Positions 2,661-25,333 are shown, counted from the stretch's first letter. The stretch: DNA of 32,024 nt from a bacterium (GCA_043736875.1 JAYTBU010000035.1:1-32024), one strand, 5' to 3'. The notes: a model not told the origin generated them from the sequence alone. A program made the numbers and translations.

Positions 2661-2697
2661 ATAAAAATAGCGGCGCCGTAGGCGCCGCTATTTTTAT
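2661..2697. terminator. Perfect 17-bp inverted repeat, probable bidirectional terminator (C-GTA-G loop)
   Basis: ATAAAAATAGCGGCGCC-GTA-GGCGCCGCTATTTTTAT between convergent genes. Confidence 0.85.
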
Positions 2698-2707
2698 TTT
2701 ACCGTAA

Positions 2708-3448
2708 CTACTTTACCATCTTCAAAGCTTGGTCTATAACCTTGCTAACATACTTTTCATCACGAGCACCGTTGATCATGGTTATTATCTTGTAGTCGTT
2801 ACCATCTTTTAGTAACACAAAAGTGTTGGGAGTTCCTTGCACACCAACATCGCCTCCATCAGCTATGTCAACCTCAACTTGCGCTGCATATTTTCCAGAG
2901 CTCACACAGTTTTTAAAGTCAGTTACATTTAGTCCTAGTCCTGTAGCAGTAGTGTTTAGGCTCTCTGGATCTAGAGTATCGTTGCCGCCAGTTAGTTCAA
3001 ATATTTTACTTATGTAATTTTTGTAAACTACCTGCCCACCAAGCTCACGAGCGCAAAGAGTAGCCTCAGCCTCTTTTGGAGCTCTTTTATGAAAAGGTAG
3101 AGGGTAATGTCTATAGGCTATAGATATTTTTCCTGCATATTTTTCATATATTTTGTCCATAGTCTCAGTGTGGAACTTTTTACAAAATGGACATTCTAAA
3201 TCAGAATACTCAAGCAGAACAACTTTGTCATTTACTTCACCAATTACGAACTCTTCTTGTTTCAATTCTCTGCCAGAAAATAGACTGTCAGGATCTGTAA
3301 AAGAGGTTTCAGTTTTACTTACTCCCATATTTTTAAAACCAAGGAATATTGCTAATGCTATAAATAGAGAGGCTATTATTATAGATAGTGCAACAGATAA
3401 TTTTGGCTCTGCTTTTTCTTCTTTGTGATGTTTATTTGTATTTTCCAT
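2708..3448 (-). CDS. Membrane-anchored DsbA/BdbD-family thioredoxin-fold protein
   Basis: N-terminal TM helix; EYSDLECPFC active site; GVQGTP cis-Pro loop. Confidence 0.9.
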   Translation of the reverse strand: MENTNKHHKEEKAEPKLSVALSIIIASLFIALAIFLGFKNMGVSKTETSFTDPDSLFSGRELKQEEFVIGEVNDKVVLLEYSDLECPFCKKFHTETMDKIYEKYAGKISIAYRHYPLPFHKRAPKEAEATLCARELGGQVVYKNYISKIFELTGGNDTLDPESLNTTATGLGLNVTDFKNCVSSGKYAAQVEVDIADGGDVGVQGTPNTFVLLKDGNDYKIITMINGARDEKYVSKVIDQALKMVK

Positions 3449-3473
3449 ATATTTATATTATACTATATAAATC

Positions 3474-4052
3474 ATGAATTTAAAAACGCTTATCCACTTT
3501 ATAAAAATAATCATAAAGTCACTTTTTGAGTTTATACCGATATTATCATTTTTTATGGCTTATGAGTTCACAAAAGGTAATTTCTTTACTTCTACTTTTG
3601 TGATGATGCTCACAACTATCATTTACACTTTTTATACTTTTCATAAAGAAAAGAGAATACCTTATTTGGCACTGTTTATATCTTTAGAGACCACTTTTTT
3701 TGGTAGTCTCACACTTTTTTTAAAAGATCCTGTATATGTACAGATGCGTGATAGTTTTTATGATATTATTTTGGGTGTAACTATTTTGATTACTGGGTAT
3801 TTAGATGCACCTGTTATAAAAAAGTTTTTTGGACATATATTTAATTTGGAAGATGCTCTTTGGAAAAAGTTATCTTATCAGTGGGCAGCTTTTTTATTAA
3901 CTTTCGGGGTAACAAATGAATATATTAGAAGACATTTTACAGAAAATATTTGGGTTGATTACAAATTCGTAGTATTTTCTATTACAGTAACTTTTGCTCT
4001 TTATCTTTTTTGGAAATATAAAAAGAGTGTAAAAAATCTAGAATTAGTTTAA
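3474..4052 (+). CDS. yciB: Intracellular septation protein A (YciB/IspZ family) membrane protein
   Basis: EFIPILSFF, FFGSLTL, W..L...W..F and NEYIRRHF.E.IWV.YK patterns; multiple TM helices. Confidence 0.8.
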   Translation: MNLKTLIHFIKIIIKSLFEFIPILSFFMAYEFTKGNFFTSTFVMMLTTIIYTFYTFHKEKRIPYLALFISLETTFFGSLTLFLKDPVYVQMRDSFYDIILGVTILITGYLDAPVIKKFFGHIFNLEDALWKKLSYQWAAFLLTFGVTNEYIRRHFTENIWVDYKFVVFSITVTFALYLFWKYKKSVKNLELV

Positions 4053-4099
4053 TTATAATTAAAATGTTATTATAAAAAAAGTAAATAAAAAATATAAAT

Positions 4100-5439: not shown

Positions 5440-5577
5440 TTTTTTATTTACATGTTAACATATAACATTTTGCCATATACATAAAGTATAACAGTTATAA
5501 TTATTATTAAAAAGAGGGCAATGTATTTTAAAGTAGTGTTTAATCTCATGATATAATTATACAACAAAAATCTTATA

Positions 5578-5700: not shown

Positions 5701-8067
5701 ATGCAAACAAAAAACTATTTTACAAAAATCATATTAACATTATTAGTTTTATTTTCTTTTTCATTGACGGTCAGTGCTCAGTTTTTTACACAAGAGACAT
5801 CTGATCCTAACTTGGTAAATAGAAACAGAATATATTCTCCAGACACTAGGAATAAAAATATAATAGATACAGCAGCTATACATACTTATTGTAATCTATC
5901 TAAAATATTCTCCTCTGAAATAGAGAGAGAGAAGTGTTTTGTCTCTGGAGGTCAGACTACTATACAAAATACCCCATCAGATCCAGTAGACCTATCTCAA
6001 ATAAATGCTACACTACAGTCTCAAGCTAATGATATACAGAACCTTAAAAACAGACCAGAGGGTACAGTAGTAAAGTATGTTAATACTGGCTCCACCAGAG
6101 TAGTTCAAGGTTCTACAGTGTCTATACCGGGAAAAGATGGTAGAGGTATAGTTTCTACAGTGCAGAATACAAATGGAAGCATAACCTTTAAATATACAGA
6201 CGGGACAACTTTTACTACTATACCTAGCTCAAATGGTAACAATGGTACAGGATTATCTGGTTCTCCTATATCACCTTTTAATACAAATTATAGTTATCAA
6301 TACGTTCCTGTAGCAGGACCAAGCACTGTATCTGCTCCTGCAAATAATTATTATAATACATATGTTAGTGCTGCAATGTCAGCGGGTACAAGCACAGCGC
6401 TTACAATTAGTGGTACAGGTGCAACATCTAGTCCTTATATTTTTGATTTAAAATCTTGTGCAAATAATCAAATGCTAGGATTTAGCACAACTACAAACAC
6501 TTGGGATTGTAAAAAAACTAATTTAAAATACTATGACGAGTCAATTGTAAATCCTTCTGGGGCACCTATTGCTTCTGGTGCTAATAGTGTAGCAATAGGA
6601 GACACAGCCAGAGCAGTCGCCTCCTCTTCTATGGCTATAGGTTACAAAGTTACAACTACCGGTGAGGAGTCAGTCTCTTTTGGAGGTAATAGTACTAGTA
6701 GCGGTGATCTTTCTGTAACTAGTGGTTTATATAACTTAGCTTCAGGTCTAAGATCTGTCGCTTTTGGTATAAGTAACTCAGCAACAAATGAGGACACTGT
6801 TACTGTGGGTGTTCAAAATACAGCTACAAGTAAGTACGCAGGATCTATAGGTAGAATAAATACCTCTTCTGGACTCGGCTCATATACCATAGGAAATGTA
6901 AACAATGTTTCAGGTAACTTTTCTATTGCATACGGTGCCTCTAATACAGTATCAAACGGAGATAGTTTAGCTATAGGTAATGAAAATAATATAACAGGAG
7001 ATAATTCACAAGTTGTGGGTAAATTAAACACTGTTAACGCTAACAAGACAGGAGTTTTTGGACTCTACAATACAGCACTGTCTGACTATGCTTATATCTT
7101 TGGGGCTTCTAATACAGTAGCACTAAACGCTACCAATTCTATAGCTATAGGTCAAAATATAAATAATATAACACCAAACACTATACAAATAGGTTTAAGT
7201 GATTTGAAAAAATTAACAATATTACAAAATGGTTGGATGGGTCTTGGTGGCAGAACTGCACCGTTAACCAGTGGCAACTGTAATCCAAGCACATTAAACG
7301 CTACAGCGACTTGTCCAGAGACAGAGATGTTACGTGTACCAGGTAAAATAGTAGCACAAGCTTTTGAAGTTAATAGTGCGGCTGATCTTGCTGAGAACTT
7401 TCCAGCAGATGAGATTGATTTAGTGGCTGGAACCATAGTTCAGTTCAGCACTACAACTCATTTGTGGAACACAGGAGGCACAAGTGATGCTGCAGGAGAG
7501 TATGAGCTTAATGGCGTAGAAAAAGCAAAAGATAGTAAAAAAGCTATCGGTGTTATAGCTACTAATCCGGGTATAATACTGGGAGGTAATACAAAAAATA
7601 GCGTGCCTGTTGCATTTTCTGGACGTGTGCCAGTGCGTGTTACAGCTGAAAATGGTCCAGTTAAAAAAGGAGATAAGATAACATTGTCATCTCAATTTTC
7701 GGGCACAGGAGCAAAGTTAATTGGTAGTGGTCAAGTTGTTGGTACTGCCATGAGCGAGGACACTGGTAAGGGTATAGTCTTGATGTTAGTTAAAAATGAA
7801 TATATATACGAGTCAAATGATATATCTACTATTGTATCATCAACCTTACAAAATAATACTATCTCTACATCTGTACCAACCTCAAATATAAATCCATTAC
7901 AAAATACAAATTCATTATGTATAGAAGAAGTATGTTTGGATAAAAATCTACTTAAAAAACTTATAGATTTTATAAATAACTTTATACCAAACACCAATAG
8001 TGGAGCCAGCACAGTTTCTCCTGAAATAAATAATACAAGCACGACAAATGAGGCCATTACTATCTAA
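5701..8067 (+). CDS. Secreted adhesin/tail-spike-like protein: YadA-head-like repeats plus peptidase G2/intramolecular-chaperone-like domain
   Basis: Signal peptide; S/T/N-rich region; about 14-aa S.AIG/S..FG repeats; ADLAENF...IGVIATNPG...VAFSGRVPVRV...GPVKKGD; LCIEEVCL near the C-terminus. Confidence 0.75.
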   Translation: MQTKNYFTKIILTLLVLFSFSLTVSAQFFTQETSDPNLVNRNRIYSPDTRNKNIIDTAAIHTYCNLSKIFSSEIEREKCFVSGGQTTIQNTPSDPVDLSQINATLQSQANDIQNLKNRPEGTVVKYVNTGSTRVVQGSTVSIPGKDGRGIVSTVQNTNGSITFKYTDGTTFTTIPSSNGNNGTGLSGSPISPFNTNYSYQYVPVAGPSTVSAPANNYYNTYVSAAMSAGTSTALTISGTGATSSPYIFDLKSCANNQMLGFSTTTNTWDCKKTNLKYYDESIVNPSGAPIASGANSVAIGDTARAVASSSMAIGYKVTTTGEESVSFGGNSTSSGDLSVTSGLYNLASGLRSVAFGISNSATNEDTVTVGVQNTATSKYAGSIGRINTSSGLGSYTIGNVNNVSGNFSIAYGASNTVSNGDSLAIGNENNITGDNSQVVGKLNTVNANKTGVFGLYNTALSDYAYIFGASNTVALNATNSIAIGQNINNITPNTIQIGLSDLKKLTILQNGWMGLGGRTAPLTSGNCNPSTLNATATCPETEMLRVPGKIVAQAFEVNSAADLAENFPADEIDLVAGTIVQFSTTTHLWNTGGTSDAAGEYELNGVEKAKDSKKAIGVIATNPGIILGGNTKNSVPVAFSGRVPVRVTAENGPVKKGDKITLSSQFSGTGAKLIGSGQVVGTAMSEDTGKGIVLMLVKNEYIYESNDISTIVSSTLQNNTISTSVPTSNINPLQNTNSLCIEEVCLDKNLLKKLIDFINNFIPNTNSGASTVSPEINNTSTTNEAITI

Positions 8068-8773
8068 TCTTTTAAATATAAGCATAACGCTTTTTGTTAT
8101 TAGTTTTATTTACTCTGTGTTTAATTTAACTTTTAATATACCAGTTTATTTTATATTTTTTATTATTACAATTAGTTTATTTTCTATTTTTTTAGTAAAA
8201 AGTAAAAGTAAAAAAATGTATATACTTATAGTCTTGTCTTTTTTATGCTTGTTTATATTGTCTTATTTAAATACAAAATATTTAACAAATGTAAATACTA
8301 AAAACAACTCAGAAATTTCAGACGACATAAATAAGACAAATAAAAATCTTGTCATGGGAGCAGAAAAAGAAGCTAGTACAGAAAGTTTAATACAAGACAT
8401 ACAAATAGATATTAAGAATAATATAGATAAAGAGATTATAAAAGAAAAAATATTATACACCATACAAAAAGCAGAGGAAAGAAAAGATAAAAATCTTAGT
8501 ATTAGTTATTTAGATTTGGGGCACGTATATGAAATAGCTTTTGTTTCTGGATATTCTGAAGCTGGCAGTAAAGCATTAGAGTCTTATAATCAGTATTGTC
8601 TACTGGAACCTAATGATGCCAACTGTTACGCTACCGTAGCTAGATTTTTAATAATAGATAAAAATAGAAAAAAAGAAGCTATAATTTTTGCAAAAAAAGC
8701 CTTGGAATTATCTAAAGATGGACAAGAGACAGAAAATTACAACAAGCTTTTAAATTATATTGAGAAGTTATAA
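8048..8773 (+). CDS. Membrane protein with C-terminal TPR-like repeats
   Basis: Three N-terminal TM helices; YLDLGHVY, ALESY...LEPND and AIIFAKKALELS TPR patterns; overlaps the upstream gene by 20 nt. Confidence 0.65.
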   Translation: MRPLLSNLLNISITLFVISFIYSVFNLTFNIPVYFIFFIITISLFSIFLVKSKSKKMYILIVLSFLCLFILSYLNTKYLTNVNTKNNSEISDDINKTNKNLVMGAEKEASTESLIQDIQIDIKNNIDKEIIKEKILYTIQKAEERKDKNLSISYLDLGHVYEIAFVSGYSEAGSKALESYNQYCLLEPNDANCYATVARFLIIDKNRKKEAIIFAKKALELSKDGQETENYNKLLNYIEKL

Positions 8774-8782
8774 TTTAAATTT

Positions 8783-9907
8783 TTAATTTTCTAATGAAAG
8801 ATTTGGATCGGCACGTAGATTAACAGCTTCTTTTTGAGTAAGTGGTTTTATATTATTTTGTATTTTGATAAAAGCCATAGCTGCTATCATTACAGCATTG
8901 TCAGTAGATAGATTTTTTTCTGGCAAGTGTATGTTCAGATTATCTTTTTCACAAATATCAGAAAGTGTTTTTCTTATGTGTGTATTTGCAGATACACCGC
9001 CACCAACTATTAGGCTCTTTGCATTGTATAAGTAAAGCGCCTCACGAGTTTTTTTAGAGAGCACGTCTGTAACTGCATTTTCAAATTCCATACAGAACAT
9101 TTCTAACTCACTTTTTTCTAATTTATGTCTTTCCACTTTACTTATGACACTAGTTTTTAGTCCTGAAAAAGAAAAATTAAGATCATGGCTGTGTAACATG
9201 GGTCTCGGTAAGCGGAGCTCTTCACGTACGACACCTGTCTTTTTTCTGGCAAGGTTAGCAAGCTTGCTTATTTCTGGTCCACCAGGATAAGGCAGTCCGA
9301 GAGTGCGAGCAGATTTATCAAAGCATTCACCTACAGCATCATCGAGGGTAACCCCCACTTTTTTATATTTATAAATATTCTCTATTTTATTTTCTGACAC
9401 ATTTATATCTTTTTTATTTTGGGTTATGCTTATAATCTCTGTGTGTCCACCAGAAATAAGCAATGCAATAGACGGCAAGCTGGGCGCATTTATTTTAAAA
9501 GTATCTTCATTTACCTTGGACATAAGTGATGCGTATATATGGCCCTCCATGTGATTGATGGGGTAGAGAGGTATATTATATTCTCTGCTTATTTTTTTGG
9601 CTATCTCTATACCTGTCCAAAGCGCAGGGGAAAGTCCAGGCCCATTTGTAACGGCGATAGCGTCTATTTTTTTAAAATTATTTTCATTGCCGATTGCTTG
9701 CTCTAGGAGTATCGGTAGGTTTTTTAGATGTTCACGTTTTGCGACATTTGGATAGACTCCGCCATATTCTCGGTGTATATCTATTTGGGATATGAGTAGA
9801 TTTTTTTCAATAGTAAAAGAAGAGGAAATCTCTTTGTCAGATTTTCTAAAGTTTATTATGCATATTGCTGTCTCGTCGCAGCTAGTCTCTATCGCAAGTA
9901 GTCTCAT
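8783..9907 (-). CDS. tsaD: tRNA N6-adenosine threonylcarbamoyltransferase TsaD
   Basis: LAIETSCDET, GPGL, NHMEGH, SGGHT, DDAVGECFDK and TDNAVMIA motifs. Start moved to ATG 9907 (MRLL). Confidence 0.97.
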   Translation of the reverse strand: MRLLAIETSCDETAICIINFRKSDKEISSSFTIEKNLLISQIDIHREYGGVYPNVAKREHLKNLPILLEQAIGNENNFKKIDAIAVTNGPGLSPALWTGIEIAKKISREYNIPLYPINHMEGHIYASLMSKVNEDTFKINAPSLPSIALLISGGHTEIISITQNKKDINVSENKIENIYKYKKVGVTLDDAVGECFDKSARTLGLPYPGGPEISKLANLARKKTGVVREELRLPRPMLHSHDLNFSFSGLKTSVISKVERHKLEKSELEMFCMEFENAVTDVLSKKTREALYLYNAKSLIVGGGVSANTHIRKTLSDICEKDNLNIHLPEKNLSTDNAVMIAAMAFIKIQNNIKPLTQKEAVNLRADPNLSLEN

Positions 9908-9913
9908 GTTTTT

Positions 9914-9922
9914 ATTATAACA
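9914..9922 (-). promoter_or_regulatory. Extended -10 promoter (TGTTATAAT), leaderless type, for tsaD
   Basis: Minus strand reads TGTTATAAT-AAAAAC-ATG. Confidence 0.75.
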
Positions 9923-10027
9923 CAAATAAATATATTTTTAAATTAAAAAGCTATAGTAAAATATATTTGTGAAAAGTTAAAAATACTACACACCCATTTC
10001 GTATTGTGTTATACTATTTAAAAGAAT

Positions 10028-10468
10028 ATGAAAATAAATATAATTTATATAGGTAGTAAAAAAAGTGTACATAGTGAGCAGATAGACGAATATAAAAAAA
10101 GATTAACCAGATACGCTGACATAGACGAGCTTCGTATAGAGCATAGTGACATAAAAAAAGAGGGAGATATAATAGAAAACAAAATAGAAAAAAGTGATTA
10201 TGTTTTACTGCTAGACGAAACAGGTAGTGCTATGAGCAGTATAGACTTTGCAGAGTTTATAGATGCAAGGCAAAATAGTAGCGTCAAAAAACTTGTTATA
10301 ATTATCGGCGGAGCATATGGAGTTAGTGAAAATATAAAAGAAAGAGCAAATAACACAATGTCACTGAGCAAGATGGTTTTCCCGCACGAGCTAGCTCGCC
10401 TTATAATATGGGAGCAGTTATACAGAGCTTATAGTATTTTGGGTGGGGGATTGTATCATCATGAGTAG
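10028..10468 (+). CDS. rlmH: 23S rRNA pseudouridine-1915 N3-methyltransferase
   Basis: LLDETG...SS..FA, IIGGAYG and SLSKMVFPHELARLIIWEQLYRA...YH SPOUT motifs. Confidence 0.96.
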   Translation: MKINIIYIGSKKSVHSEQIDEYKKRLTRYADIDELRIEHSDIKKEGDIIENKIEKSDYVLLLDETGSAMSSIDFAEFIDARQNSSVKKLVIIIGGAYGVSENIKERANNTMSLSKMVFPHELARLIIWEQLYRAYSILGGGLYHHE

Positions 10469-10476
10469 TTACTGAT

Positions 10477-10505
10477 TTGACAACAGTATTTTAAAATAGT
10501 ATAAT
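10477..10505 (+). promoter_or_regulatory. Perfect consensus sigma70 promoter
   Basis: TTGACA (10477-10482), 17 bp spacer, TATAAT (10500-10505). Confidence 0.85.
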
Positions 10506-10567
10506 CCACTAGGTTAATATAGTGTACCGATTTTAAAACACTTGTTCTTTTTAGATAGGTTATCATT

Positions 10568-11197
10568 ATGAGTAATTTTTTACGGTCATCAGAAACTCTA
10601 AAGTTAGCTTCATCTCTGCTTGAGTGTGCTTCTCAGTGTTTTTTTTCAGAGAAAGATATTGTCTTTCTTGTTAACAGTAAAGATAAACAGCAACAACTTC
10701 GAGAATTTTTACAAAAGCTTATTAGCCCCATATATGATTTTACTGATAAGAGTAAAATACAGACCTCTAAAGATCAAAACCTGTCTAACTTGATCCAGAT
10801 GGGTAAATACTCTCAGTATGATATAGACTCTTTTTTGAAGAGGCACCCTGATTTACCAATTTCTTATGATTGGGGTAATTATGAGTACCGATTGGTCAGC
10901 TTTGACAAGCCTGTCAGTGAAAAAGAGTTTTTGGAGGAGCTGAACCGAGATAGTTTCCTGAGTGCTTCTATTCGTCATCTACTGGTCTACGGAGCGATGT
11001 TTCCAGAATCTGATGACTGTATTGTCTCGACTCGGCTGAGTAACATTATTGATGGGCAGTTGTGTTGTCCGGCTATTTTTAAGGATAAGAAACATGAACG
11101 TCGCGAACTAACATCATGGAGAATGTCTTCTTTAAAAAATCTACAGCCAGTCGAGAGACGTTTTTTTCTCACTGTAAAAAAGCTTAGTAAATGTTAG
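10568..11197 (+). CDS. Hypothetical protein (monocistronic orphan)
   Basis: 209-aa ORF bracketed by its own promoter and terminator; no confident family assignment. Confidence 0.75.
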   Translation: MSNFLRSSETLKLASSLLECASQCFFSEKDIVFLVNSKDKQQQLREFLQKLISPIYDFTDKSKIQTSKDQNLSNLIQMGKYSQYDIDSFLKRHPDLPISYDWGNYEYRLVSFDKPVSEKEFLEELNRDSFLSASIRHLLVYGAMFPESDDCIVSTRLSNIIDGQLCCPAIFKDKKHERRELTSWRMSSLKNLQPVERRFFLTVKKLSKC

Positions 11198-11214
11198 TCG
11201 GTAATAAGAGCAGC

Positions 11215-11246
11215 AAACCCCTTCTATTTTAGAAGGGGTTTTATTT
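11215..11246 (+). terminator. Intrinsic terminator
   Basis: AAACCCCTTCTA-TTT-TAGAAGGGGTTT followed by a T-rich tract. Confidence 0.8.
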
Positions 11247-11284
11247 ATATAAAACATGTATATATTAAAATAGTGTAGATACTC

Positions 11285-11313
11285 TTGAAAAAAGATTGGA
11301 AATGTAGTATAAT
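11285..11313 (+). promoter_or_regulatory. sigma70 promoter of rpmE
   Basis: TTGAAA, 17 bp spacer, TATAAT. Confidence 0.7.
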
Positions 11314-11347
11314 ACACAAATAATATAAAAAGTAAGAAAATAACTAT

Positions 11348-11557
11348 ATGAAATCAGACATACATCCAAAATACACAACAGAGACAGATACTACATGTAT
11401 CTGCGGGGCAACGTATAATTTTGGCTCTACATTAAAAGATGTAAAGATTGAAATCTGCGCATCGTGCCATCCATTTTATACGGGACAAGAAAAATCTTTG
11501 GACACTACAGGTAGAGTAGATAAATTTAAAAAGCGTGTAGCGAAAGCGACAGCTTAA
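11348..11557 (+). CDS. rpmE: 50S ribosomal protein L31 (Zn-binding type)
   Basis: MKSDIHPKY, CxC, CxxCHPFYTG and GRVDKF motifs. Confidence 0.97.
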   Translation: MKSDIHPKYTTETDTTCICGATYNFGSTLKDVKIEICASCHPFYTGQEKSLDTTGRVDKFKKRVAKATA

Positions 11558-11963: not shown

Positions 11964-12011
11964 GATACAATTATAACACAAAAATATTTATTTATTTGTA
12001 TTATTTTTATT

Positions 12012-12458: not shown

Positions 12459-12577
12459 AATATTATTATAACATAAAAATATATAGTGTGTAAAAAGATA
12501 ATAAAGAGAGTATACAAAAAATTTGCTTTGCTAAGCTATGTTTCTATGTTATTATATATTTATAAAAAATAAAATAT

Positions 12578-13006: not shown

Positions 13007-13090
13007 AGTGTAAAAACTTTTACTTATACACATAACAAAAAGTCTGTATTTTATTTATATGTTATAATATAAGTATAACAAATAAAATAT

Positions 13091-13867: not shown

Positions 13868-13888
13868 TTACTAATAATTTTTGCAAAT

Positions 13889-16648: not shown

Positions 16649-16665
16649 TTCTAGTAAGAAAATAA

Positions 16666-16698
16666 AAAAGTGTTTGCAAATATTTTGCAAACACTTTT
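16666..16698. terminator. Perfect 15-bp inverted repeat, probable bidirectional terminator
   Basis: AAAAGTGTTTGCAAA-TAT-TTTGCAAACACTTTT between convergent genes. Confidence 0.85.
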
Positions 16699-16708
16699 AG
16701 GTCTTAAA

Positions 16709-16924
16709 CTATTTCTGTCTATTTTTAAATTTATATTTTAATCTCCTCCAGAAATTTTCAATTTCTGGAGTTTTTGCTTTTAATGCTGCGTCAGCTTTGT
16801 TAAAAGAAAAATGTATAAAGAGCGCAGAAGTTATCAGTCCCAGCCCCCAGAATATAAGCTTTAATTTAAGCAAGATGAGCAAAAGTACTCCTACAGCTAC
16901 CCACAAAAATGTTTTCATAATCAT
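16709..16924 (-). CDS. Small two-TM membrane protein
   Basis: Hydrophobic N-terminal half and basic tail; TAATG stop/start overlap with the upstream gene. Confidence 0.6.
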   Translation of the reverse strand: MIMKTFLWVAVGVLLLILLKLKLIFWGLGLITSALFIHFSFNKADAALKAKTPEIENFWRRLKYKFKNRQK

Positions 16925-17643
16925 TACTCCTTATTTTTAGTTTCAAGAAATGGTTTAACTTTTTGATGTAGACGTAAACCAACATCAAACACACTGTATA
17001 ACTTGTATATCCAGTAAATTGCGAATATCTCATACTCAGAAAGATAATTTATATTCTTCTCAGAATTAGCAGAAGTTTCATATTTCCACCATTCTTTTAA
17101 AAATTTTTTCCAGTCTTTTGCTCTAGATAAAAAATCAGCATCAAAGTATAAGTTACTAAAACCAGAAAAAATCACAAATGTATCATTAAATTTCTCATGA
17201 TCAGCCATCTCTATTTTATGAGAGTGTAGATATGCATGAGCAACTTCATGTGCCAGTGTTCTGACTATTTCTTCGGTGCCGTAAGTTAAAACATTTAAAC
17301 TAACTTTAATCTTGAATGTATAAGATTCAAAATCTTTAGACTCTGTGTCTGGTATGTTTTTTGGTATAGATATACTTGCAAGTGTGCCAGCTGGCATATC
17401 TATCAAAGAGAGATCAAAATTACATTTTAAACCATAATGCTTTGCTATATCCTCCGCTACAAAAGTTAATGTATTAACATTATCTAGTTTATAGCTTTTT
17501 GCCAAGGACAAATCATAAGAGTAGGGCAGCCCCGACTCTTTGTATATTTCTATAGATTTCTTTATGTATTCAGGTATTATAAATATGTCAAAAGATGTGA
17601 GCATTACTCGCCTCCTTACTATGTTATATATGTTATTGAACAT
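16924..17643 (-). CDS. HExxH zinc metallopeptidase-like protein (ImmA/IrrE-like); start uncertain
   Basis: RTLAHEVAHAYL...HEKFND motif. The ORF is open to 17691; ATG 17643 was chosen as a plausible start. Confidence 0.6.
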   Translation of the reverse strand: MFNNIYNIVRRRVMLTSFDIFIIPEYIKKSIEIYKESGLPYSYDLSLAKSYKLDNVNTLTFVAEDIAKHYGLKCNFDLSLIDMPAGTLASISIPKNIPDTESKDFESYTFKIKVSLNVLTYGTEEIVRTLAHEVAHAYLHSHKIEMADHEKFNDTFVIFSGFSNLYFDADFLSRAKDWKKFLKEWWKYETSANSEKNINYLSEYEIFAIYWIYKLYSVFDVGLRLHQKVKPFLETKNKE

Positions 17644-17721
17644 TTTTTTTGCTAATAATTTTAGTAGCAAAAACCTCTTATAATATAGCATATTTTTAAG
17701 CTTTTAACAAAGTGTTTTTTG

Positions 17722-17730
17722 TGGTATAAT
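17722..17730 (+). promoter_or_regulatory. Extended -10 promoter for the tRNA-Cys/mreB unit
   Basis: TG-G-TATAAT, 45 nt upstream of the degenerate tRNA copy. Confidence 0.55.
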
Positions 17731-17775
17731 ATGTATATAAGATTTTATCTATAAAATAGTAAATTTTTAAAAAAA

Positions 17776-17844
17776 GATGCAGTGGCGAAGTGGTAACCAT
17801 AATGGTCTGCCAGAAAAAATAGACACCATGCGCAGATTGAGATT
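17776..17844 (+). pseudogene. Degenerate tandem copy of tRNA-Cys
   Basis: Three blocks identical to the tRNA, in order: 22 nt (17776-17797), TGGTCTGC (17803-17810) and CACCATGCGC (17824-17833). No TTC loop or 3' acceptor strand. Confidence 0.75.
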
Positions 17845-17862
17845 GGGATAGGGTTAAAATAT

Positions 17863-17937
17863 GATGCAGTGGCGAAGTGGTAACGCTGTGGTCTGCAAAA
17901 CCACCATGCGCGAGTTCGATTCTCGCCTGCATCTCCA
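17863..17937 (+). tRNA. tRNA-Cys (GCA)
   Basis: Acceptor GATGCAG/CTGCATC; anticodon arm GTGGT-CTGCAAA-ACCAC; T arm GCGAG-TTCGATT-CTCGC; U73; encoded CCA. Confidence 0.97.
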
Positions 17938-18986
17938 TGTTAGAAAAATTAAAAAACAAATTCTCAAATGATATAGGTATAGACCTCGGAACTGCTAATA
18001 CTCTGGTTTATGTTCGTGACGTAGGTATAGTGCTCAACGAGCCAAGTGTCGTAGCTGTTAATGTAAAGACTGATAGAATGGTAGCTATAGGTGAAGCAGC
18101 AAAACAGATGATGGGCAGAACCCCAACACATATCAAGTGCGTGAGACCACTAGTTGATGGTGTGATCAGTGATTATGAGATAACTGAGGAGATGTTAGGT
18201 TACCTTATTAACAAAGCTAACAATATACATAAAAAGTTCCTGCGCCCACGTGTTGTAGTTGGTGTGCCAGTAGGCATAACTAATGTTGAGACTAGGGCGG
18301 TATATGATGCTGCGCGCGCCGCAGGCGCGCGCGAAGTGTACATTATCGAGGAGCCTATGGCTGCAGCTATAGGTATCAAGATGCCAGTGCACGATGCAGA
18401 AGGTTCTATGATCATAGATATAGGAGGGGGTACAACTGACATAGCGGTCATCTCTCTCTCAGGTATAGTGAAAGCAAAGTCTGTGAAAATTGCAGGGGAT
18501 AAGCTAACTAGTGATATTGTTACTTATTTTAAAGATGATCATAAGCTTCTTATTGGAGAGAAAACAGCAGAAGATATAAAAGAAAATATAGGATCAGCTA
18601 TGCCTATTGGAGACCCAGCTGACATGATAGTACGTGGCCGCGATATGGTTTCTGGATTACCAAAAGAGATAACGATAAGCGACAGTGATATTAGAAAATG
18701 CATGTATCAGTCTATATCGTTAGTAATAGAATCAGTTAGGGAAGTAATAGAGATGACGCCACCAGAAGTTTTGATAGATATTATGAGAAAAGGTATAGTG
18801 GTTGCTGGAGGAGGAGCTTTGATCAAAGGCTTACCAGAATTAATGCAAATACAATTAAAAGTTCCTGTGCATGCATGTGAAGATCCTCTTACTGCTGTTG
18901 CACGTGGTTGCGGTATAATCTTAGAAGATGTAGAAAAGTATAGAGATGTTTTAATAAAAGACCATGAAGAAATCGCATTTAGATAA
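17937..18986 (+). CDS. mreB: Rod shape-determining protein MreB
   Basis: IGIDLGTANT, RPLVDGVI, EEPMAAAIG, IDIGGGTT and AGGGAL motifs. ATG 17937 gives the normal N-terminal length. Confidence 0.97.
   Translation: MLEKLKNKFSNDIGIDLGTANTLVYVRDVGIVLNEPSVVAVNVKTDRMVAIGEAAKQMMGRTPTHIKCVRPLVDGVISDYEITEEMLGYLINKANNIHKKFLRPRVVVGVPVGITNVETRAVYDAARAAGAREVYIIEEPMAAAIGIKMPVHDAEGSMIIDIGGGTTDIAVISLSGIVKAKSVKIAGDKLTSDIVTYFKDDHKLLIGEKTAEDIKENIGSAMPIGDPADMIVRGRDMVSGLPKEITISDSDIRKCMYQSISLVIESVREVIEMTPPEVLIDIMRKGIVVAGGGALIKGLPELMQIQLKVPVHACEDPLTAVARGCGIILEDVEKYRDVLIKDHEEIAFR
18312..18332 (+). repeat. Perfect 9-bp all-GC intragenic inverted repeat with C-GCA-G triloop
   Basis: GCGCGCGCC-GCA-GGCGCGCGC inside mreB. 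Confidence 0.85.
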
Positions 18987-19707
18987 TAATTTTTATACAA
19001 AGTTTTTTTTAGCAGTATCTATTTTTTTAATTATATACTATTTTTTTAATTATAATATTAAAAATTTTTTTATAAATAATTATGTAAATATTTATACTAA
19101 AATAAATCTCTTCAAAACTGAAAATACGAATCAGTTAAAAGCTCTAGATTTTGAGAAACAAAAATTAGAAAATAGAGTATTTGAGCTTGAGCAGTATATT
19201 AAAAATGCAAGCGATACAGCTTCTATATTAAATATGGGTCAAATAGAAGTTGTTGCAGCAAGTAAAATATCAAACAATTTTTTATCAAAAAATATAATAT
19301 ATAGCGATCTTATCCTGAACAAGGGTCTTGTCGAATATGTAAAAAATGATGATATGGTTTTTGTTTCAGGATTTAAACCTGTCGGTTTTATTTCTGAGAC
19401 ATATAACTCCTCATCAAAAGTCACCTTATTTACACAGGATAAATTAGAAACAAAAGCAGTAATTAAAATAGGTCAAGATTATATATCTTTAAAATTAATT
19501 GGTGACGGCACATTTGGATTTACTGCAAATGTACCAGACTCTATAAATCTAGAAATTGGTCAAGCTGTGTACACCAATAACTCTGATAATTTTTCTCTAG
19601 GTAATATTATTGACATTAAAAATGAAGACAGTACAAAAGAAAAAATACTTTATATAAACTCTAATTATTCTAATCATGAAGGTTCTGCCTTTTATGTTCA
19701 GATATAA
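18964..19707 (+). CDS. mreC: Rod shape-determining protein MreC (divergent)
   Basis: Position after mreB; TM helix, short coiled coil, then LILNKG...V...D.V...VG.I and V.LFT patterns. Confidence 0.75.
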   Translation: MKKSHLDNNFYTKFFLAVSIFLIIYYFFNYNIKNFFINNYVNIYTKINLFKTENTNQLKALDFEKQKLENRVFELEQYIKNASDTASILNMGQIEVVAASKISNNFLSKNIIYSDLILNKGLVEYVKNDDMVFVSGFKPVGFISETYNSSSKVTLFTQDKLETKAVIKIGQDYISLKLIGDGTFGFTANVPDSINLEIGQAVYTNNSDNFSLGNIIDIKNEDSTKEKILYINSNYSNHEGSAFYVQI

Positions 19708-19722
19708 ATCATTAAAGCTAAT

Positions 19723-19878
19723 ATGAAAAAGAATCACCTTAAAATATTTTCACTTATTATTTTCCTAGCATCCATTTTAATAGATATTTTGTATTCGGGT
19801 TTTCTGCCTATTTATAGTATAATGTGTTTAGTTTTATATATAATCATACATGTCACTATTCCATATATTCGCAAATAA
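19723..19878 (+). CDS. 51-aa two-TM protein in the mreD position (mini-MreD candidate)
   Basis: Translated by hand: MKKNHLKIFSLIIFLASILIDILYSGFLPIYSIMCLVLYIIIHVTIPYIRK. Fills the mreC-mrdA gap and overlaps the mrdA start. Confidence 0.6.
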   Translation: MKKNHLKIFSLIIFLASILIDILYSGFLPIYSIMCLVLYIIIHVTIPYIRK

Positions 19879-21568
19879 AAATAAGAGAAATACAAAAGAA
19901 ATAGACCCAGAAGATATTTTTTTAGAGTCTACAAATCTTTCAAATCTTGATCAGGATAATTTTGAGGGGCGTTTTGAAAAGCTTATAGAAAAAAAACTTT
20001 TTTATTTTATAGCAGCATCTTTAGTTCTGGTATTTAGTTTTTTTACTTATAAAGCAAGTTTGATACAAGTAAAAGATTATGAGAAGTGGAGTAATTTGGC
20101 TGACAAAAATTACCTAAAAAAGACCCCGATATTTCCTAGTCGCGGTGTAATAAAAGATAGAAATGGAGAGCTGTTGGTGTGGAATGAAGATGTTACAAGC
20201 TCCACCAATACTATATCAAGTAGATTTTATACAAAAGATTTAGGTATCTCTTCTTTGCTTGGATATGTCTCGTACCCTAAAAAAGATAAGTCTGGACATT
20301 TTTGGCAAAATGATTATATAGGTTCTGCGGGATTGGAAAAAAAATACAATGACGTACTCTCTGGAGTTAATGGTGAAAAAGTTATAGAAATAAATGCTAA
20401 CGGTACCATAGCAAAAGATAATATATTAAATAAACCAGTAGATGGTAAAAATGTAGAGACTAATATAGATGCGCGTCTTCAAAAAATATTTTATAACAAA
20501 CTAAGAGACGTCGTAGATGTTCAGGGTTTTGATGGTGGTGCTGCAGTTATGATGAATGTAAATACGGGAGAGGTGCTAGCTCTTGTAAGTGTCCCAGATT
20601 TTGACAGTAACATATATGCAAATGCTACAAATACAGAAGACAAAAAAATTAAAAATAGTTATTTGGAAGATGTTAGGACTCCTATGTTAAATAGAGTTAT
20701 TAACGGCTCATACGTTCCTGGATCTGTTGTAAAGCCGTTCATGGCTTATGCTGCACTTTATGAGGGTGTTATAGGTGAGTATGGCAATATATATTCTAGT
20801 GGGCAGTTAGTTATAAAAAATAAATATGGTGGACCAGATACTATTTTTCGTGACTGGAAAGCTCATGGTTATGTAGATGCTAGAAAAGCTATAGCAGAGA
20901 GTAGTGACGAGTATTTTTATCAAGTTGGAGGTGGCTACATGGATCAGGCTGGAATAGGAATAAATAAAATAGAAAAGTATATGAAGTTTTTTGGATTTGC
21001 TAGTAGTACAGGTATTGATTTTCCTTCAGAAAAAATCGGAATAGTCCCGAGTATAGAATGGAAAAAGAAAAATTTTGCTGAAGGTGATTGGCTACTTGGT
21101 AATACCTATCACACATCTATAGGGCAATATGGATTCAAGACGACACCACTAGAGTTAGTGAGATCTATAGCTATCATTGCTAATGGTGGTAGGTTAGTTA
21201 TTCCAAAAATTTTGAAAATAAAAAACCTGGAAGAAGTAATAACTATGCAGACAGATTTGAAACTTGATCAAAATATATTAAAAGTTATGCGTGAGGGTAT
21301 GCGAGGTGCTGCAGGTGAGGGAGGTACAGCGCATTATTTTTCTGATTTACCTTTTAAAGTCAGTGCAAAAACTGGTACAGCGCAGCTCGGTTTTAATAAT
21401 GAAAGAGTTAACAGCTGGTCTAGTGGATACTGGCCCAGCGAAAATCCAAAATACGCTTTTGTATTTATGATGGAGGATGGTCCAGCGAGTAACAAAGTAG
21501 CAAGCAGCAAGATAATGAGGCACGTCTTTGGGGACATTCTAGAGACTTTACCAGAATATACAAAGTAA
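19850..21568 (+). CDS. mrdA: Penicillin-binding protein 2 (class B transpeptidase)
   Basis: RGVIKDRNG, G..GLEK.Y, PGSVVK (SxxK), SSD and KTGTAQ motifs; mre cluster context. Confidence 0.92.
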   Translation: MSLFHIFANKNKRNTKEIDPEDIFLESTNLSNLDQDNFEGRFEKLIEKKLFYFIAASLVLVFSFFTYKASLIQVKDYEKWSNLADKNYLKKTPIFPSRGVIKDRNGELLVWNEDVTSSTNTISSRFYTKDLGISSLLGYVSYPKKDKSGHFWQNDYIGSAGLEKKYNDVLSGVNGEKVIEINANGTIAKDNILNKPVDGKNVETNIDARLQKIFYNKLRDVVDVQGFDGGAAVMMNVNTGEVLALVSVPDFDSNIYANATNTEDKKIKNSYLEDVRTPMLNRVINGSYVPGSVVKPFMAYAALYEGVIGEYGNIYSSGQLVIKNKYGGPDTIFRDWKAHGYVDARKAIAESSDEYFYQVGGGYMDQAGIGINKIEKYMKFFGFASSTGIDFPSEKIGIVPSIEWKKKNFAEGDWLLGNTYHTSIGQYGFKTTPLELVRSIAIIANGGRLVIPKILKIKNLEEVITMQTDLKLDQNILKVMREGMRGAAGEGGTAHYFSDLPFKVSAKTGTAQLGFNNERVNSWSSGYWPSENPKYAFVFMMEDGPASNKVASSKIMRHVFGDILETLPEYTK

Positions 21569-21699
21569 AAGAAATTAGCATTAAGTCAATAGTGATAAAT
21601 ATTCTAAAAAATGGTATGATATAAACAAGTAAGAATCTATAAAAATAAAAATTACTCTTAATTAAATCTTAAAAATAAAATAATAGCCAAAATAAATAT

Positions 21700-22167
21700 A
21701 TGGAAGAAAAAGAATACATCACCTTAGAAAAAAAAGAATTGCTGGATATAGAGTTAAAAGAATTAACAGAAGTGAAAAGAAAAGAGATAGCTAGTGCATT
21801 AGAATATGCAAAGTCTCTCGGTGACCTATCAGAGAATGCCGAGTATCATCAGGCTCGTGAGGATCAAGCTCACTTAGAAGACAGAATACGTGAGATAGAG
21901 CATATCCTTAAAAATGCTGAGATAACTGAGAGACATCATGCAGGAAAGGTTGAACTAGGTGCAACAGTATCAGTAAAGAAAAAAGGAGAAAAAACAGTTA
22001 GAAAGTTTCTTATGGTTGGAAGTGAGGAGGCTGATGTGGCCGCAGGCAAAATCTCAAATGAATCAGCTCTTGGAAAAGTATTATTAGGAAAAGTAGAAAA
22101 GGATGAGGTTAGTTTTACAAATCCAAAAGGTGAGGTTGTCACTTATGTTGTTGTGGATATAGAATAG
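21700..22167 (+). CDS. greA: Transcription elongation factor GreA
   Basis: GDLSENAEYH and KIS.ES.LG..LLG motifs. Confidence 0.97.
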   Translation: MEEKEYITLEKKELLDIELKELTEVKRKEIASALEYAKSLGDLSENAEYHQAREDQAHLEDRIREIEHILKNAEITERHHAGKVELGATVSVKKKGEKTVRKFLMVGSEEADVAAGKISNESALGKVLLGKVEKDEVSFTNPKGEVVTYVVVDIE

Positions 22168-22188
22168 TTTAAAATTTTTACTAGAAAA

Positions 22189-24192
22189 ATGAAACAAAAA
22201 ATATCCTTAAATCATGTTCGTAGTGAGTATCTGAAACATTTCAAAGAAAATGTTAATTTCCCACATGGGATAATAGCGAGTAGTCCGCTAGTGCCTGACA
22301 ATGATCCGACGACACTTTTTACAGGGTCTGGTATGCAGCCGATGTTGCCATATCTACTTGGGCAATCACACCCTTTGGGGAAAAGAATAGCAGATAGTCA
22401 AAAATGTTTCAGATCACAAGATATAGAAGAGGTCGGAGACAACAGGCACACTACATATTTTGAAATGCTCGGCAACTGGTCACTCGGTGATTATTTTAAA
22501 ACAGAGCAGATAGATATGATGTGGGATTTTCTTATAAACAAAATAAATCTTGATCCCAAAAATCTATACATATCAGTTTACAAAGGCAATGAAAAGCTGG
22601 GTATAGGTCAGGATATGGATGCGGTAAAAGCTTGGCAAAATAATTTTGCAAAGTATTTTAATGTTAGTGCAGAGGAAATAAAAGTAGGACAAAATCCAGA
22701 AGTTGATGGCATGAGAAATAGTGAAAAGATGTTTGCATATACTGATAAGAAAAATTGGTGGAGTAGAGCTGGTGTGCCAGACAATATGCCTGTCGGCGAA
22801 CCGGGTGGTCCTGACACAGAGATGTTCTATGATTTTGATCCAGAAAATAAAGAGCAAGTTCATGAGAAAAGTCAATGGTCAAAAGATGTCTGTAATCCTA
22901 ACTGTGACTGCGGTAGATATGTCGAGATAGGTAACAATGTATTTATGCAATACAAAAAGAGAGAGAGTGGCGTCGAGGAGCTTATGCAGAAAAACGTGGA
23001 CTTTGGTGGTGGCCTCGAGCGTATAGTCGCAGCATGTAATAATGATAGTGACATGTTTAACATAGACGCTTTTGACAATGCTAAAAATATTTTAGAAAAT
23101 ATGTCTAACACAAAATATGTGAGTGATAAAAATGTTACTTTTACAGACCTTGCTCATCCGACTTTTGCTTATCGTGTTGTGCTGGATCATGTGCGCGCTG
23201 CGACTATGCTGATCGGTGACGGTGTTTACCCGGGTAACAAAGATCAGCAGTACTTTGTGCGCAGACTGATTAGGCGCGCAGTCAGATTTGCTAGAAATAT
23301 CGGCATCAATCAAAACTTTACAGCAGAGGTGGCACAGACTTTTATAGATTTTTACAAGAGTCACTATACATATTTAAATGATGAAAATAAAATATTGGAA
23401 ATCAAAAAAATAATAGATGATGAAGAGAGTAAGTTTCGAAAGACACTTGAGTCAGGTCTGAAAGAATTTGAAAGGCTTTGTAAAACAAAAAATCAGTGGA
23501 AAGAAAACATGAAAGAAGGTTCTGTTAATTTTGATATTAGCGGAGAAGATGCTTTTAATTTGTTACAAAGTTTTGGATTCCCAATTGAGCTTACTTGTGA
23601 ACTTGCAAAAGAAAGAGGTTTGACTGTAGATATGGTTTGGTTTAATGCATTAAAAAACGAACATGCTGAGAAGAGTAGAACAGCGAGTGCCGGCAAGTTC
23701 AAGGGTGGCATGGGTGGTGACGGTGTGATAGAGATAAAGTATCACACAGCGACACATATGTTACATCAAGCACTAAAGATGGCACTAGGAGAAAGTGTGC
23801 AGCAAAAAGGTAGTAATATAACTAGCGAGAGACTGCGCTTTGACTTTGCATTTGAAAGAAAGATGACAGAAGAGGAAAAACAAAAAGTAGAAGAAATAGT
23901 AAATGAAAATATCACCGCAGATCACAAGATGATACGCGAAGAGATAAGTTACGATGAGGCCAGAAGCAGAGGTGCTATAGGACTTTTTGATAATAAATAT
24001 GGTGATAAAGTTTCTATCTATCATATGGGTACAGAGAGTACAGGGAAAAACCGTGGAGACGAGGGTCTATTTTCTATAGAGTTCTGTGGTGGTCCACATG
24101 TAGAGAGTACTGGGGATATGGGCGTATTTAAAATAGTAAAAGAAGAAGCGGTGAGTGCGGGAGTGAGACGTATAAAAGCTGTTTTAGGATAG
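22189..24192 (+). CDS. alaS: Alanine--tRNA ligase (short form)
   Basis: LFT.SGMQP, RHTTYFEMLGNWS, GPDTE and DFGGGLER motifs; editing motifs HTATH and CGGPH; ends at GVRRIKA. Confidence 0.97.
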   Translation: MKQKISLNHVRSEYLKHFKENVNFPHGIIASSPLVPDNDPTTLFTGSGMQPMLPYLLGQSHPLGKRIADSQKCFRSQDIEEVGDNRHTTYFEMLGNWSLGDYFKTEQIDMMWDFLINKINLDPKNLYISVYKGNEKLGIGQDMDAVKAWQNNFAKYFNVSAEEIKVGQNPEVDGMRNSEKMFAYTDKKNWWSRAGVPDNMPVGEPGGPDTEMFYDFDPENKEQVHEKSQWSKDVCNPNCDCGRYVEIGNNVFMQYKKRESGVEELMQKNVDFGGGLERIVAACNNDSDMFNIDAFDNAKNILENMSNTKYVSDKNVTFTDLAHPTFAYRVVLDHVRAATMLIGDGVYPGNKDQQYFVRRLIRRAVRFARNIGINQNFTAEVAQTFIDFYKSHYTYLNDENKILEIKKIIDDEESKFRKTLESGLKEFERLCKTKNQWKENMKEGSVNFDISGEDAFNLLQSFGFPIELTCELAKERGLTVDMVWFNALKNEHAEKSRTASAGKFKGGMGGDGVIEIKYHTATHMLHQALKMALGESVQQKGSNITSERLRFDFAFERKMTEEEKQKVEEIVNENITADHKMIREEISYDEARSRGAIGLFDNKYGDKVSIYHMGTESTGKNRGDEGLFSIEFCGGPHVESTGDMGVFKIVKEEAVSAGVRRIKAVLG

Positions 24193-24228
24193 AGTCACCT
24201 CTTCCATTTTATGTTATAATATATTGAT

Positions 24229-25262
24229 ATGCATACTCAGGAAGACTTAAGGGTATTCTATACAAAACAAGTAGCAAGTATTGTGCGTAAGATAAGATAT
24301 TATTACCAATCGGCTAAGTCAGACTTGATACATTCTAAAATTAATGAAGCTAAATACAGGCAGTTAAAAAAACGAGCCCTGATGATGTTAGTTGATTTTC
24401 ACCTAGCATACTCAGGCGAAATTATAAAAAGAAACAACACTTCAAAAATAAATTATACTTCAAAAATTCTAGGTATGTCTGAGAGTCAAATATCACTTTT
24501 AGCTCTCGAAAAATGGGAGGATAATGTTATTACTTCACGGGATATTATTGAATTATGTCAAGACATATACAACAAAAGCCTAAGTATGCTGGAGCCAAAA
24601 ATACAAAAAGGTGAAGAGTATATAAAAGGTGTTCATGTCAGTGAATACAAAGTTGGTGGTAAAGAGCTGGTAATCATAGTGCCCGGTCTGCCGCATATTT
24701 ATGAAGAAACAGAAACACCACTTTTTTTAATATACATGGATATGATGTGATTAATTTTTCATATAAAGGATCAGTACTAAGTGAGCAAAGTAAGATACTT
24801 GCTCCAGAAAAAGACCTCGAGACGCTGCTCGATTTTTATAAGGAAAAATACAAAAAGATAATTATCGTAGCGTGTAGTTTTGGAGGTTATGTGGCACTCA
24901 ATGCGACTTATCCAGAAGATGTTGTGAATAAAATATTTATTGTGTCAGGTGTAGTTAATTTTACTTCAGTAAAAGGAATAGAAACACTTCCAAAGTACCT
25001 GGCTTTGGAGAATCCTTTTATCTATAGTTGGGATGAAAAAAGAATAGAGCAGTATATTGAAACATCAACATATCCAAAAACTTTAGCTCAAAATGTGTAT
25101 TTTTTTCATGGCATAAAAGACGAGCAAATATCCTGCAGTGAAGTTTATAGATTCGCCAAGGAAAATAGTTATTCTTTTACAGAAATTGATGAGGGACACA
25201 TATCGCTTAGAAAGTTTTGTGCTGGCTATGTTAATGAATTTTATAAAATAATAAATAATTGA
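24229..25262 (+). CDS. Alpha/beta hydrolase with N-terminal unknown domain, split by a -1 frameshift (ORFs 24229-24750 and 24747-25262)
   Basis: ORF1 ends with LVIIVPGLP. The -1 frame continues FFNIHGYDVINFSYKGS...ACSFGG...HGIKDEQI...GH. Confidence 0.7.
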
Positions 25263-25302
25263 AGAAATTTTCTGTAAAAATAGATTATAGACATTGGTAA
25301 AT

Positions 25303-25333
25303 TAAAAAGCCCGCGCGAAGCGCGGGCTTTTTA
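25303..25333. terminator. Perfect 14-bp inverted repeat terminator (C-GAA-G loop)
   Basis: TAAAAAGCCCGCGC-GAA-GCGCGGGCTTTTTA. Confidence 0.85.

Follow-up and report, generated by a model that had tools for sequence, protein, structure and literature searches.

Rickettsia palindromic elements (RPEs) are repeats of roughly 100–150 bp that occupy small, AT-rich genomes, have no known transposase, are lineage-specific, and enter genes as in-frame insertions that are translated. Here, we describe a family of hairpins that resembles RPEs in these respects other than size, from a bacterium whose draft genome (G000) comprises 668,598 bp in 55 contigs at 33% GC and is 90.9% complete; the window, that is, the whole stretch of DNA analyzed, is the entire 32,024-nt contig C35 (GCA_043736875.1 JAYTBU010000035.1:1-32024). 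Family members are typically perfect palindromes with a GC-rich core, closed by a C-G pair over a three-base loop of the form GNA. Compared to RPEs, the copies found in genes are only 21–27 nt long, their stems are perfect, their center is a GNA triloop, they use modules in common with transcription terminators, and some are recodings rather than insertions. Two marks of selfish palindromes are present, namely multi-copy lineage-specific proliferation and in-frame insertion absent from orthologues, whereas a unit of ~40–150 bp with a target-site duplication was not seen.

Several other systems invite comparison. Yeast mitochondrial GC clusters are GC-rich palindromes in an AT-rich genome that turn over, proliferate, and diversify with no enzyme of their own (PMC4478555), but the hairpins described here lie on a bacterial chromosome, are far shorter (GC42 is 42 nt), obey a strict triloop rule, and have no target-site duplication that could be seen. 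Repetitive extragenic palindromes (REPs) and bacterial interspersed mosaic elements (BIMEs) also occur at gene ends as short GC-rich palindromes, for which functions in termination and mRNA stability have been proposed; REPs themselves lie outside genes, have imperfect stems, bear a GTAG or CGTC tag on one side, and are associated with a Y1 transposase (PMC3733652). By contrast, 30 of the 68 present copies are intragenic, the stems are perfect, and neither a foot tag nor a Y1 gene was found. The coding palindromes of Nematomorpha mitochondria are likewise perfect inverted repeats within genes, both arms of which encode conserved residues, yet they reach 284 bp and belong to animal mitochondria, whereas those described here are short, GC-rich, and built around a fixed triloop (PMC6649704).

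Two further bodies of work concern how such structures form. Perfect hairpins can be both generated and preserved by template switching (PMC8794818), with perfect arms arising in one step, compensatory change at several bases at once, and homogenization or extension of arms (PMC8794818, PMC13100816); the portions of these studies available to us concern RNA genes and promoters and contain no genome-wide family with GC cores, GNA loops, and coding copies. The d(GCGNAGC) mini-hairpin has the same center as the present family, a GNA loop closed by 5'-C...G-3', and is exceptionally stable in DNA, its RNA versions being much less so (PMC13037366, PMC3201870); the accessible parts of those reports treat this stability as a property of the molecule and name a handful of sites in phages and plasmids (the G4 origin, ssiA, and the N4 promoter), with no chromosomal family of dozens of copies among them. 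A published description of such an element in candidate phyla radiation (CPR) bacteria, or Patescibacteria, or of GNA-triloop terminators was not found in a search that covered the subscription literature thinly, and a terminator preprint (10.64898/2026.05.29.728758) has no triloop passage. Unit size in genes, the strict GNA center, perfect stems, and the sharing of modules between terminators and coding sequence set the family apart from the known kinds.

Within the window, four members were predicted from inspection of the sequence, and all four were re-found with their stems, loops, and C-G closure. Hairpin 2661–2697 has a perfect 17-bp stem, with an 8-bp GC core between A and T tracts, and a GTA loop; hairpin 11802–11828 has a perfect 12-bp stem and a GAA loop that reads TTC in the mRNA; hairpin 18312–18332 has a perfect, all-GC 9-bp stem and a GCA loop on the sense strand; and hairpin 25303–25333 has a perfect 14-bp stem, again an 8-bp GC core plus A/T tracts, and a GAA loop. 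In each, the closing pair is C-G and GNA is read on the + strand. As had been stated, two lie inside genes, 11802 within an open reading frame (ORF) on the – strand (11526–11981) and 18312 within mreB.

The shared loop geometry proved to be real and strongly non-random across the genome. Counting only perfect stems of at least 8 bp closed by a 3-nt loop, the genome has 131 hairpins, against a mean of 26.3 in 20 dinucleotide-preserving shuffles, and the 33 C-GNA-G and 35 C-TNC-G hairpins among them (68 in all) compare with 0.05 expected and a shuffle maximum of 1, an enrichment over shuffled controls that bears out the original prediction. When perfect hairpins with a GC-rich inner stem and loops of 3–9 nt were collected (96), 64 had 3-nt loops, and 55 of these were C-GNA-G or its complement (TTC 21, GAA 15, TAC 8, GTA 6, TGC 2, GGA 2, and GCA 1). 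A C-ANG-G center occurred in none of the 64 triloops, and the closing pair was 5'-C...G-3' in 59 and G-C in five. Perfection of the stems is equally marked: centers with at least five G:C pairs in the first 9 bp comprised 66 perfect stems, one with a single mismatch, and three with two mismatches, and in none of these 70 stems do the first 9 bp include a G-T pair. The three two-mismatch stems (C18:11583, C39:3004, and C54:4479) all have their mismatches at stem positions 3–4, which are tandem G-A/A-G in two of them and C-T/T-C in the other, so that their arms are in effect partly direct copies of each other.

The cores also recur. The 66 hairpins contain only 33 distinct inner 8-mers; position-wise composition predicts 58.7, and none of 2000 simulations gave fewer than 49. 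Core families follow context: one is intergenic in seven of seven copies, one is intragenic in four of five with the fifth at a contig end, and one is intragenic in four of four. The core of hairpin 2661 is common to six other copies in the genome, and identical palindromes of 23–25 nt occur in unrelated genes. No target-site duplication, donor, shared flank, or foot tag was seen by eye in 68 aligned flanks. A flip of the loop was observed between two contig ends (C31:38–215, reversed, and C49:1–178), which agree at 173 of 178 positions; read in the same orientation, one has the loop GTA and the other TTC, both outer loop bases having changed together so that GNA now lies on the other strand and the protein has Val in place of Phe or the reverse. 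Three further sites differ, and the two stretches are strain variants that were co-assembled or else copies from a recent duplication.

To place the hairpins relative to genes, the longest non-overlapping ORFs were called (709 genes, 89% coding), and context was counted for the 68 of 70 hairpins with stems of at least 7 bp that have a GC-rich inner stem. Thirty-eight are intergenic and 30 intragenic, which makes them about 10 times denser between genes than within them. Among the 31 intergenic copies with both neighbors known, 11 lie between convergent and 20 between tandem genes, and none lies in any of the 87 divergent regions, where 7.5 were expected by length. Most intergenic copies lie within 40 nt of a stop codon, with A tracts ahead of the GC core and T tracts behind it. 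In the window, hairpin 2661 begins 3 nt past the stop of a YkuD-type gene (1797–2657, +) and lies 10 nt past the stop of a convergent DsbA-like gene (2708–3448, –), and hairpin 25303 (+) lies 40 nt past the stop of an ORF (24747–25262, +) and 29 nt ahead of an M3 peptidase gene. Both have a stem-loop followed by a T tract, whereas 11802 and 18312 have no T tract; from their position and their A/T tracts, 2661 and 25303 are predicted to be intrinsic terminators. More generally, the intergenic copies are best read as putative intrinsic terminators, likely bidirectional where genes converge, as at 2661.

Ordinary intrinsic terminators share with the family a GC-rich stem followed by a T tract, a position just past stop codons, and enrichment between convergent genes. 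They do not account for nearly all loops being 3 nt long under a G-N-A/T-N-C rule, for perfect stems of up to 22–29 bp, or for cores that recur, also in genes where T tracts are absent. The loop rule is unusual because perfect inverted repeats in bacteria have spacers mostly of 4 bp, and of 4–5 bp just after gene ends, according to the available part of one survey (PMC13155455).

The intragenic copies keep the reading frame and contribute short peptide stretches, encoded by GC-rich codons that the genome otherwise avoids (GCG, GCC, and CGC each make up 11% of their synonymous class, GGC 15%, and TTC 12%). They are 21–27 nt long, carry no U tract, and are scattered along genes. Some peptides recur: GGGSEAAA is encoded in four unrelated proteins and GAARSAAP in two, with a third reading GAALRAAP. 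Hairpin 11802 encodes SGGSFASAT, and 18312 encodes ARAAGAR in MreB, using codons that are rare in the genome. For comparison, 416 kb of the same-genus genome G005 was available, in which 16 of 32 hairpin-bearing genes could be aligned across the hairpin. Nine of these 16 copies fall at indels or in variable loops (for example, seven additional codons at C28:16208 and C53:19459, and six at C50:19179), and the other seven are recodings of existing residues with length unchanged; the same perfect hairpin was present in G005 at only one of the 16 sites, that in mreB. The ORF at 11526–11981 (–), which encodes a 151-aa conserved hypothetical protein that is restricted to the genus and has no Pfam family, was matched in seven of 12 other genus genomes. 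The residues encoded by 11802 lie in a loop of variable length, opposite an 18-column gap in G003, G004, and G006 and unrelated short sequences in G005, G007, and G011. Judged from these alignments, 11802 was inserted in frame into this variable loop in one lineage only. Coding copies, read out as short Gly/Ala/Ser/Arg-rich stretches, would appear to be tolerated rather than needed.

The mreB hairpin could be followed furthest, in 26 orthologues (10 from the genus and 16 from other genera). All 10 genus orthologues encode AAR[A/T][A/G]GAR at the site, and seven have a perfect hairpin, including G007, in which the loop is GGA and Ala has become Gly with GNA kept. Among the remaining three, G002 combines one compensatory double change from G-C to A-T (with Ala to Thr) with a single mismatch, in G011 C has become T at two positions so that G-T pairs remain, and G010 has lost the hairpin with its protein identical. 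The hairpin was present in none of the 16 orthologues from other genera, which encode A(T/A)(K/R)(N/S)AGAR or similar, and so it arose within the genus with no change in length. Its 3' arm encodes G-A-R, which is also present in the other genera and is ancestral, and in its 5' arm T/A-K/R-N/S has been replaced by A-R-A, three changed residues whose codons are the reverse complement of the 3' arm. This is the footprint that a template-switch event would be expected to leave, and the event that it suggests matches those described elsewhere (PMC8794818).

Comparison with other genomes indicates rapid turnover. In a survey of 41 genomes of the same family, all nine other sampled genus genomes matched the hairpin pattern, each with its own dominant core: G012 has two (nine and six copies), G001 one (seven copies), and G011 one (four copies). 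Matches were found in some of the genomes of other genera (g2 0/4, g4 3/8, g5 7/8, g7 5/5, and g8 3/4), and copy number within the family ranges from 0 to ~37 pattern matches per genome. In the wider order, a loose pattern was matched in 153 of 201 genomes, with 26 matches against one control match in G140; only some of these 153 carry the true element, since in the order's GC-richer genomes the control is matched as often as the pattern, which makes them uninformative, and control counts overstate chance, as the control is the pattern read backwards and also matches true GAA-loop hairpins. Sites are replaced as well. Among six comparable intergenic sites in G005, none had the same hairpin and four had another perfect hairpin, and at the site upstream of the M3 peptidase gene that is orthologous to 25303, five relatives have other perfect stems of 13–15 bp with 4-nt loops.

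The arms themselves are informative. When 16 copies of the two G012 cores were retrieved, all were intergenic and shared the GC core, and their A/T-rich outer arms were specific to each copy, yet within each of the 16 copies the outer arms were exactly complementary, giving stems of 11–23 bp. At the site orthologous to 2661, G012 has a perfect palindrome of 61 nt (29-bp stem, TAC loop) 4 nt past the YkuD orthologue. Such a stem and such symmetric outer arms exceed the needs of termination, and copying of one arm from the other would explain them. Symmetric outer arms and the mreB site are the points at which the family matches template-switch hairpins.

Taking these observations together, we tentatively favor, at a little under an even chance, an explanation in which GC-cored palindromes are seeded by C-GNA-G, perfected by template switching, and have their cores spread through the genome, with intergenic copies serving as terminators and coding copies tolerated. 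During replication, single-stranded DNA would fold back at the stable d(C-GNA-G) mini-hairpin; the polymerase could then switch templates and copy one arm from the other, by which a palindrome would be perfected, extended, or newly created. Favored GC cores would be copied from site to site with no dedicated transposase. Copies that land between genes would become intrinsic terminators, often bidirectional, and those in coding sequence would be tolerated where a Gly/Ala/Ser/Arg stretch is harmless or where the residues fit reverse-complement coding. Enrichment, stem perfection, gene context, insertion or recoding, the dominant core of each species, the symmetry of the arms, and the loop flip are observations, whereas we infer the template-switch mechanism, the part of the GNA mini-hairpin in it, and the movement of cores between sites; the family would then behave like self-copying DNA rather than a dedicated signal. 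The original prediction, which had proposed a DNA-level signal beyond termination, stands in part: GNA on either strand, the lack of G-T pairs, the symmetric arms, and the loop flip are more readily accounted for by a process acting on DNA than by selection on RNA alone, but 2661 and 25303 look like ordinary intrinsic terminators.

A number of points weigh against this explanation. Local template switching alone leaves the identical GC cores at unrelated sites unexplained, and neither a flanking target-site duplication nor a donor was identified. Hairpin formation by the DNA in the cell is a prediction, and folding energies computed with ViennaRNA, using either DNA or RNA parameters, are identical for the GNA and TNC strands and thus uninformative on the loop. 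At mreB, the ancestral arm too has third positions that are GC-rich and derived, a suggestion that stem stability is selected or favored by some bias in addition to copying; conservation of the perfect hairpin in seven of 10 genus species could mean function, and the two G011 changes both keep G-U pairing in the sense RNA, as a constraint on RNA would. In addition, the nearest relatives are distant (MreB 78–84% identical), so the insertion boundaries are approximate; a search of metagenome contigs for closer strains returned 376 pattern matches, none from a relative.

A broader form of this explanation, which we regard as possible but doubtful, is that, in AT-rich genomes, C-GNA-G seeds a general, enzyme-free process by which palindromes originate, perfect themselves, lengthen, and spread. 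The triloop would fold either on the nascent strand or on the lagging-strand template where this is exposed, and so drive template switching, intergenic copies would be co-opted by the host as terminators, and coding copies would persist, frozen by self-correction together with protein constraint. If so, one process would extend across CPR bacteria, and the GNA seed would offer a physical explanation, open to test, of the places at which new hairpins, and with them new terminators, come into being. Tiny palindromes that sit in frame in essential genes like mreB, have modules in common with terminators, and follow a DNA-specific loop rule would join three subjects that are mostly kept separate, namely terminator evolution, selfish palindromic repeats, and template switching during replication.

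Another possibility is that the hairpins function only as RNA, the intergenic copies as terminators and the intragenic ones as selected mRNA structures such as stability barriers or pause sites, with stem perfection and the loop rule reflecting selection on RNA folding. The clear terminator context of the intergenic copies speaks for it, as do the conservation of the mreB hairpin at synonymous sites in seven of 10 species, the G-U pairs kept in G011, and a slight tendency of GNA to lie on the sense strand (19 of the 30 intragenic copies and 14 of the 20 tandem intergenic ones). Nevertheless, we consider it unlikely. Not one G-U pair was found among the 70 stems, although a C-to-T change would be harmless to an RNA stem, and about a third of the copies carry UNC rather than GNA in the transcript. 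The intragenic copies are spread along genes and have no U tract, the exactly symmetric and copy-specific outer arms (stems up to 23–29 bp) go beyond what termination requires, mini-hairpins of this kind are much less stable in RNA than in DNA (PMC13037366), and the perfect inverted repeats of bacterial gene ends mostly have the longer spacers noted above (PMC13155455).

The hairpins might instead be non-autonomous mobile palindromes, miniature counterparts of REPs, RPEs, or GC clusters, moved by an enzyme that is unrecognized or missing from the assembly. A dominant multi-copy core in each species, stems that recur far above chance, lineage-specific in-frame insertions of some 6–7 codons, and identical 23–25-nt palindromes in unrelated genes would all be expected of such elements. 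On the other hand, seven of the 16 comparable intragenic copies were recoded with no change in length, unlike a simple insertion, the outer arms are specific to each copy, the 68 flanks showed no target-site duplication or common flank, and no Y1/HUH transposase was found in the genome, so that we hold this to be an improbable account. The search suggested earlier for an IS200-type HUH gene or a REP-associated tyrosine transposase (RAYT) gave no match to PF01797 in the 90.9% complete assembly, and a source of that type was rejected. An IS200/IS605-type element was likewise rejected, there being no Y1 gene and the hairpins being perfect and isolated, whereas those of such elements are subterminal and imperfect. 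The lead of a diversity-generating retroelement (DGR) fared no better: the sole reverse transcriptase (C45:9374–10345, –, locus L031) is of retron type (PADLOC RT_VI, 3.4e-36; NCBIfam retron St85, 6.2e-27, below the cut-off), has no template/variable repeat (TR/VR) pair, and has as its only nearby repeat a 48-nt exact direct repeat, and the DGR reading was discarded. No link between this reverse transcriptase and the hairpins was found.

It has also been considered whether the hairpins are single-stranded DNA signals of the host, serving as priming sites or sites that exclude single-stranded DNA-binding protein (SSB) on the lagging-strand template, as fork-pause sites, or as protection during uptake. 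The original prediction noted GNA always on the + strand, which is true of the four window hairpins but not of the genome, where GNA is on the + strand of the contig in 33 cases and on the – strand in 35; the window is uniform because its GC skew is positive throughout. With local GC skew computed over ±10 kb and the hairpin masked, 46 of 66 copies have GNA on the G-rich strand, which is presumably the lagging-strand template (p = 0.002); of the 48 copies at an absolute skew of at least 0.08, 37 do. Gene strand and skew conflict for 12 copies, of which eight follow skew and four follow the gene, and GNA can lie on either strand of a gene. Mononucleotide skew by itself, however, predicts 39.6 of 66. 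A polarity does exist, though a modest one; transcription alone does not account for it, and it does not clearly exceed compositional asymmetry. Mini-hairpins do occur at primase sites and bind SSB poorly (PMC13037366), but a range from 0 to ~37 matches within one family, including a genus with none in its four genomes (g2), is not what one would expect if the signal were essential, individual sites differ from species to species, and copies are about 10 times denser between genes than inside them. A host signal of this kind therefore seems most unlikely to us.

The least tenable idea, to which we give next to no credence, is an assembly or sequencing artefact of palindromic reads, for which the excess of hairpins at contig ends could be cited, but which is contradicted by a second assembly of identical sequence, by copies that sit in frame in conserved genes, and by the presence of the mreB hairpin in independently assembled genomes of six other species. 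The second assembly (Logan contigs of the source run) has no differences from the window over 6001–22960 and 23002–26000, which rules out an assembler quirk, although it derives from the same reads and is not independent; its contigs contain no variants, gaps, or joints at hairpins 11802, 18312, and 25303. A search of sequencing runs placed the window's DNA only in the probable source sample, as contigs, with no RNA run listed.

Contig ends have a GNA-type hairpin within 100 nt in eight cases, compared to ~1.1 expected (C2:1, C12:1, C39:1, C49:13, C27:35625–35647, C10:5718, C11:16930, and C42:27943). Many of the contig ends share an exact 98-nt overlap with another, and some overlap through stretches that are 97–98.5% identical, from which it seems that the palindromes and strain variants break the assembly graph. 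Breakage of metagenome assemblies at such hairpins is of practical concern, as are the lineage-specific residues they add to proteins and the resulting distortion of codon-usage and alignment-based inference in CPR genomes.

As for the other features of the window and its surroundings, the mreB gene is listed from a GTG at 17877, but its true start is probably near 17937 (17937–18986, +), because a tRNA gene (17863–17934, +; Rfam, 65.1 bits) overlaps the listed start and relatives align only from about residue 15–21 of the listed ORF. This tRNA was the sole match in an Rfam scan of the window, which assigned no hairpin to any family. On C45, the retron-type reverse transcriptase adjoins a 231-aa P-loop-like protein with weak NTPase/kinase matches only, whose gene is flanked by the 48-nt repeat (8235–8282 and 9290–9337); the region may be a defence island or an integration scar. 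A terminator consensus scan of the window flagged four hairpins, all perfect and with 3-nt loops, namely 2661 and three others. Hairpin 11215–11241 (+) has a perfect 12-bp stem with a TTT rather than a GNA loop and is terminator-like, lying 3' of ORF 10568–11197; hairpin 16666–16698 has a perfect, AT-rich 15-bp stem with a TAT loop and is terminator-like between convergent genes; and hairpin 16746–16770 (+), also terminator-like, has a perfect 11-bp stem and a TTC loop closed by T-A, followed by a T tract. The latter two stand in tandem, as perfect-palindrome terminators, 3' of a gene (13889–16648, +) for a 919-aa protein with weak matches to TrwB/TraG-type coupling-protein and HerA/DUF87 ATPase domains.

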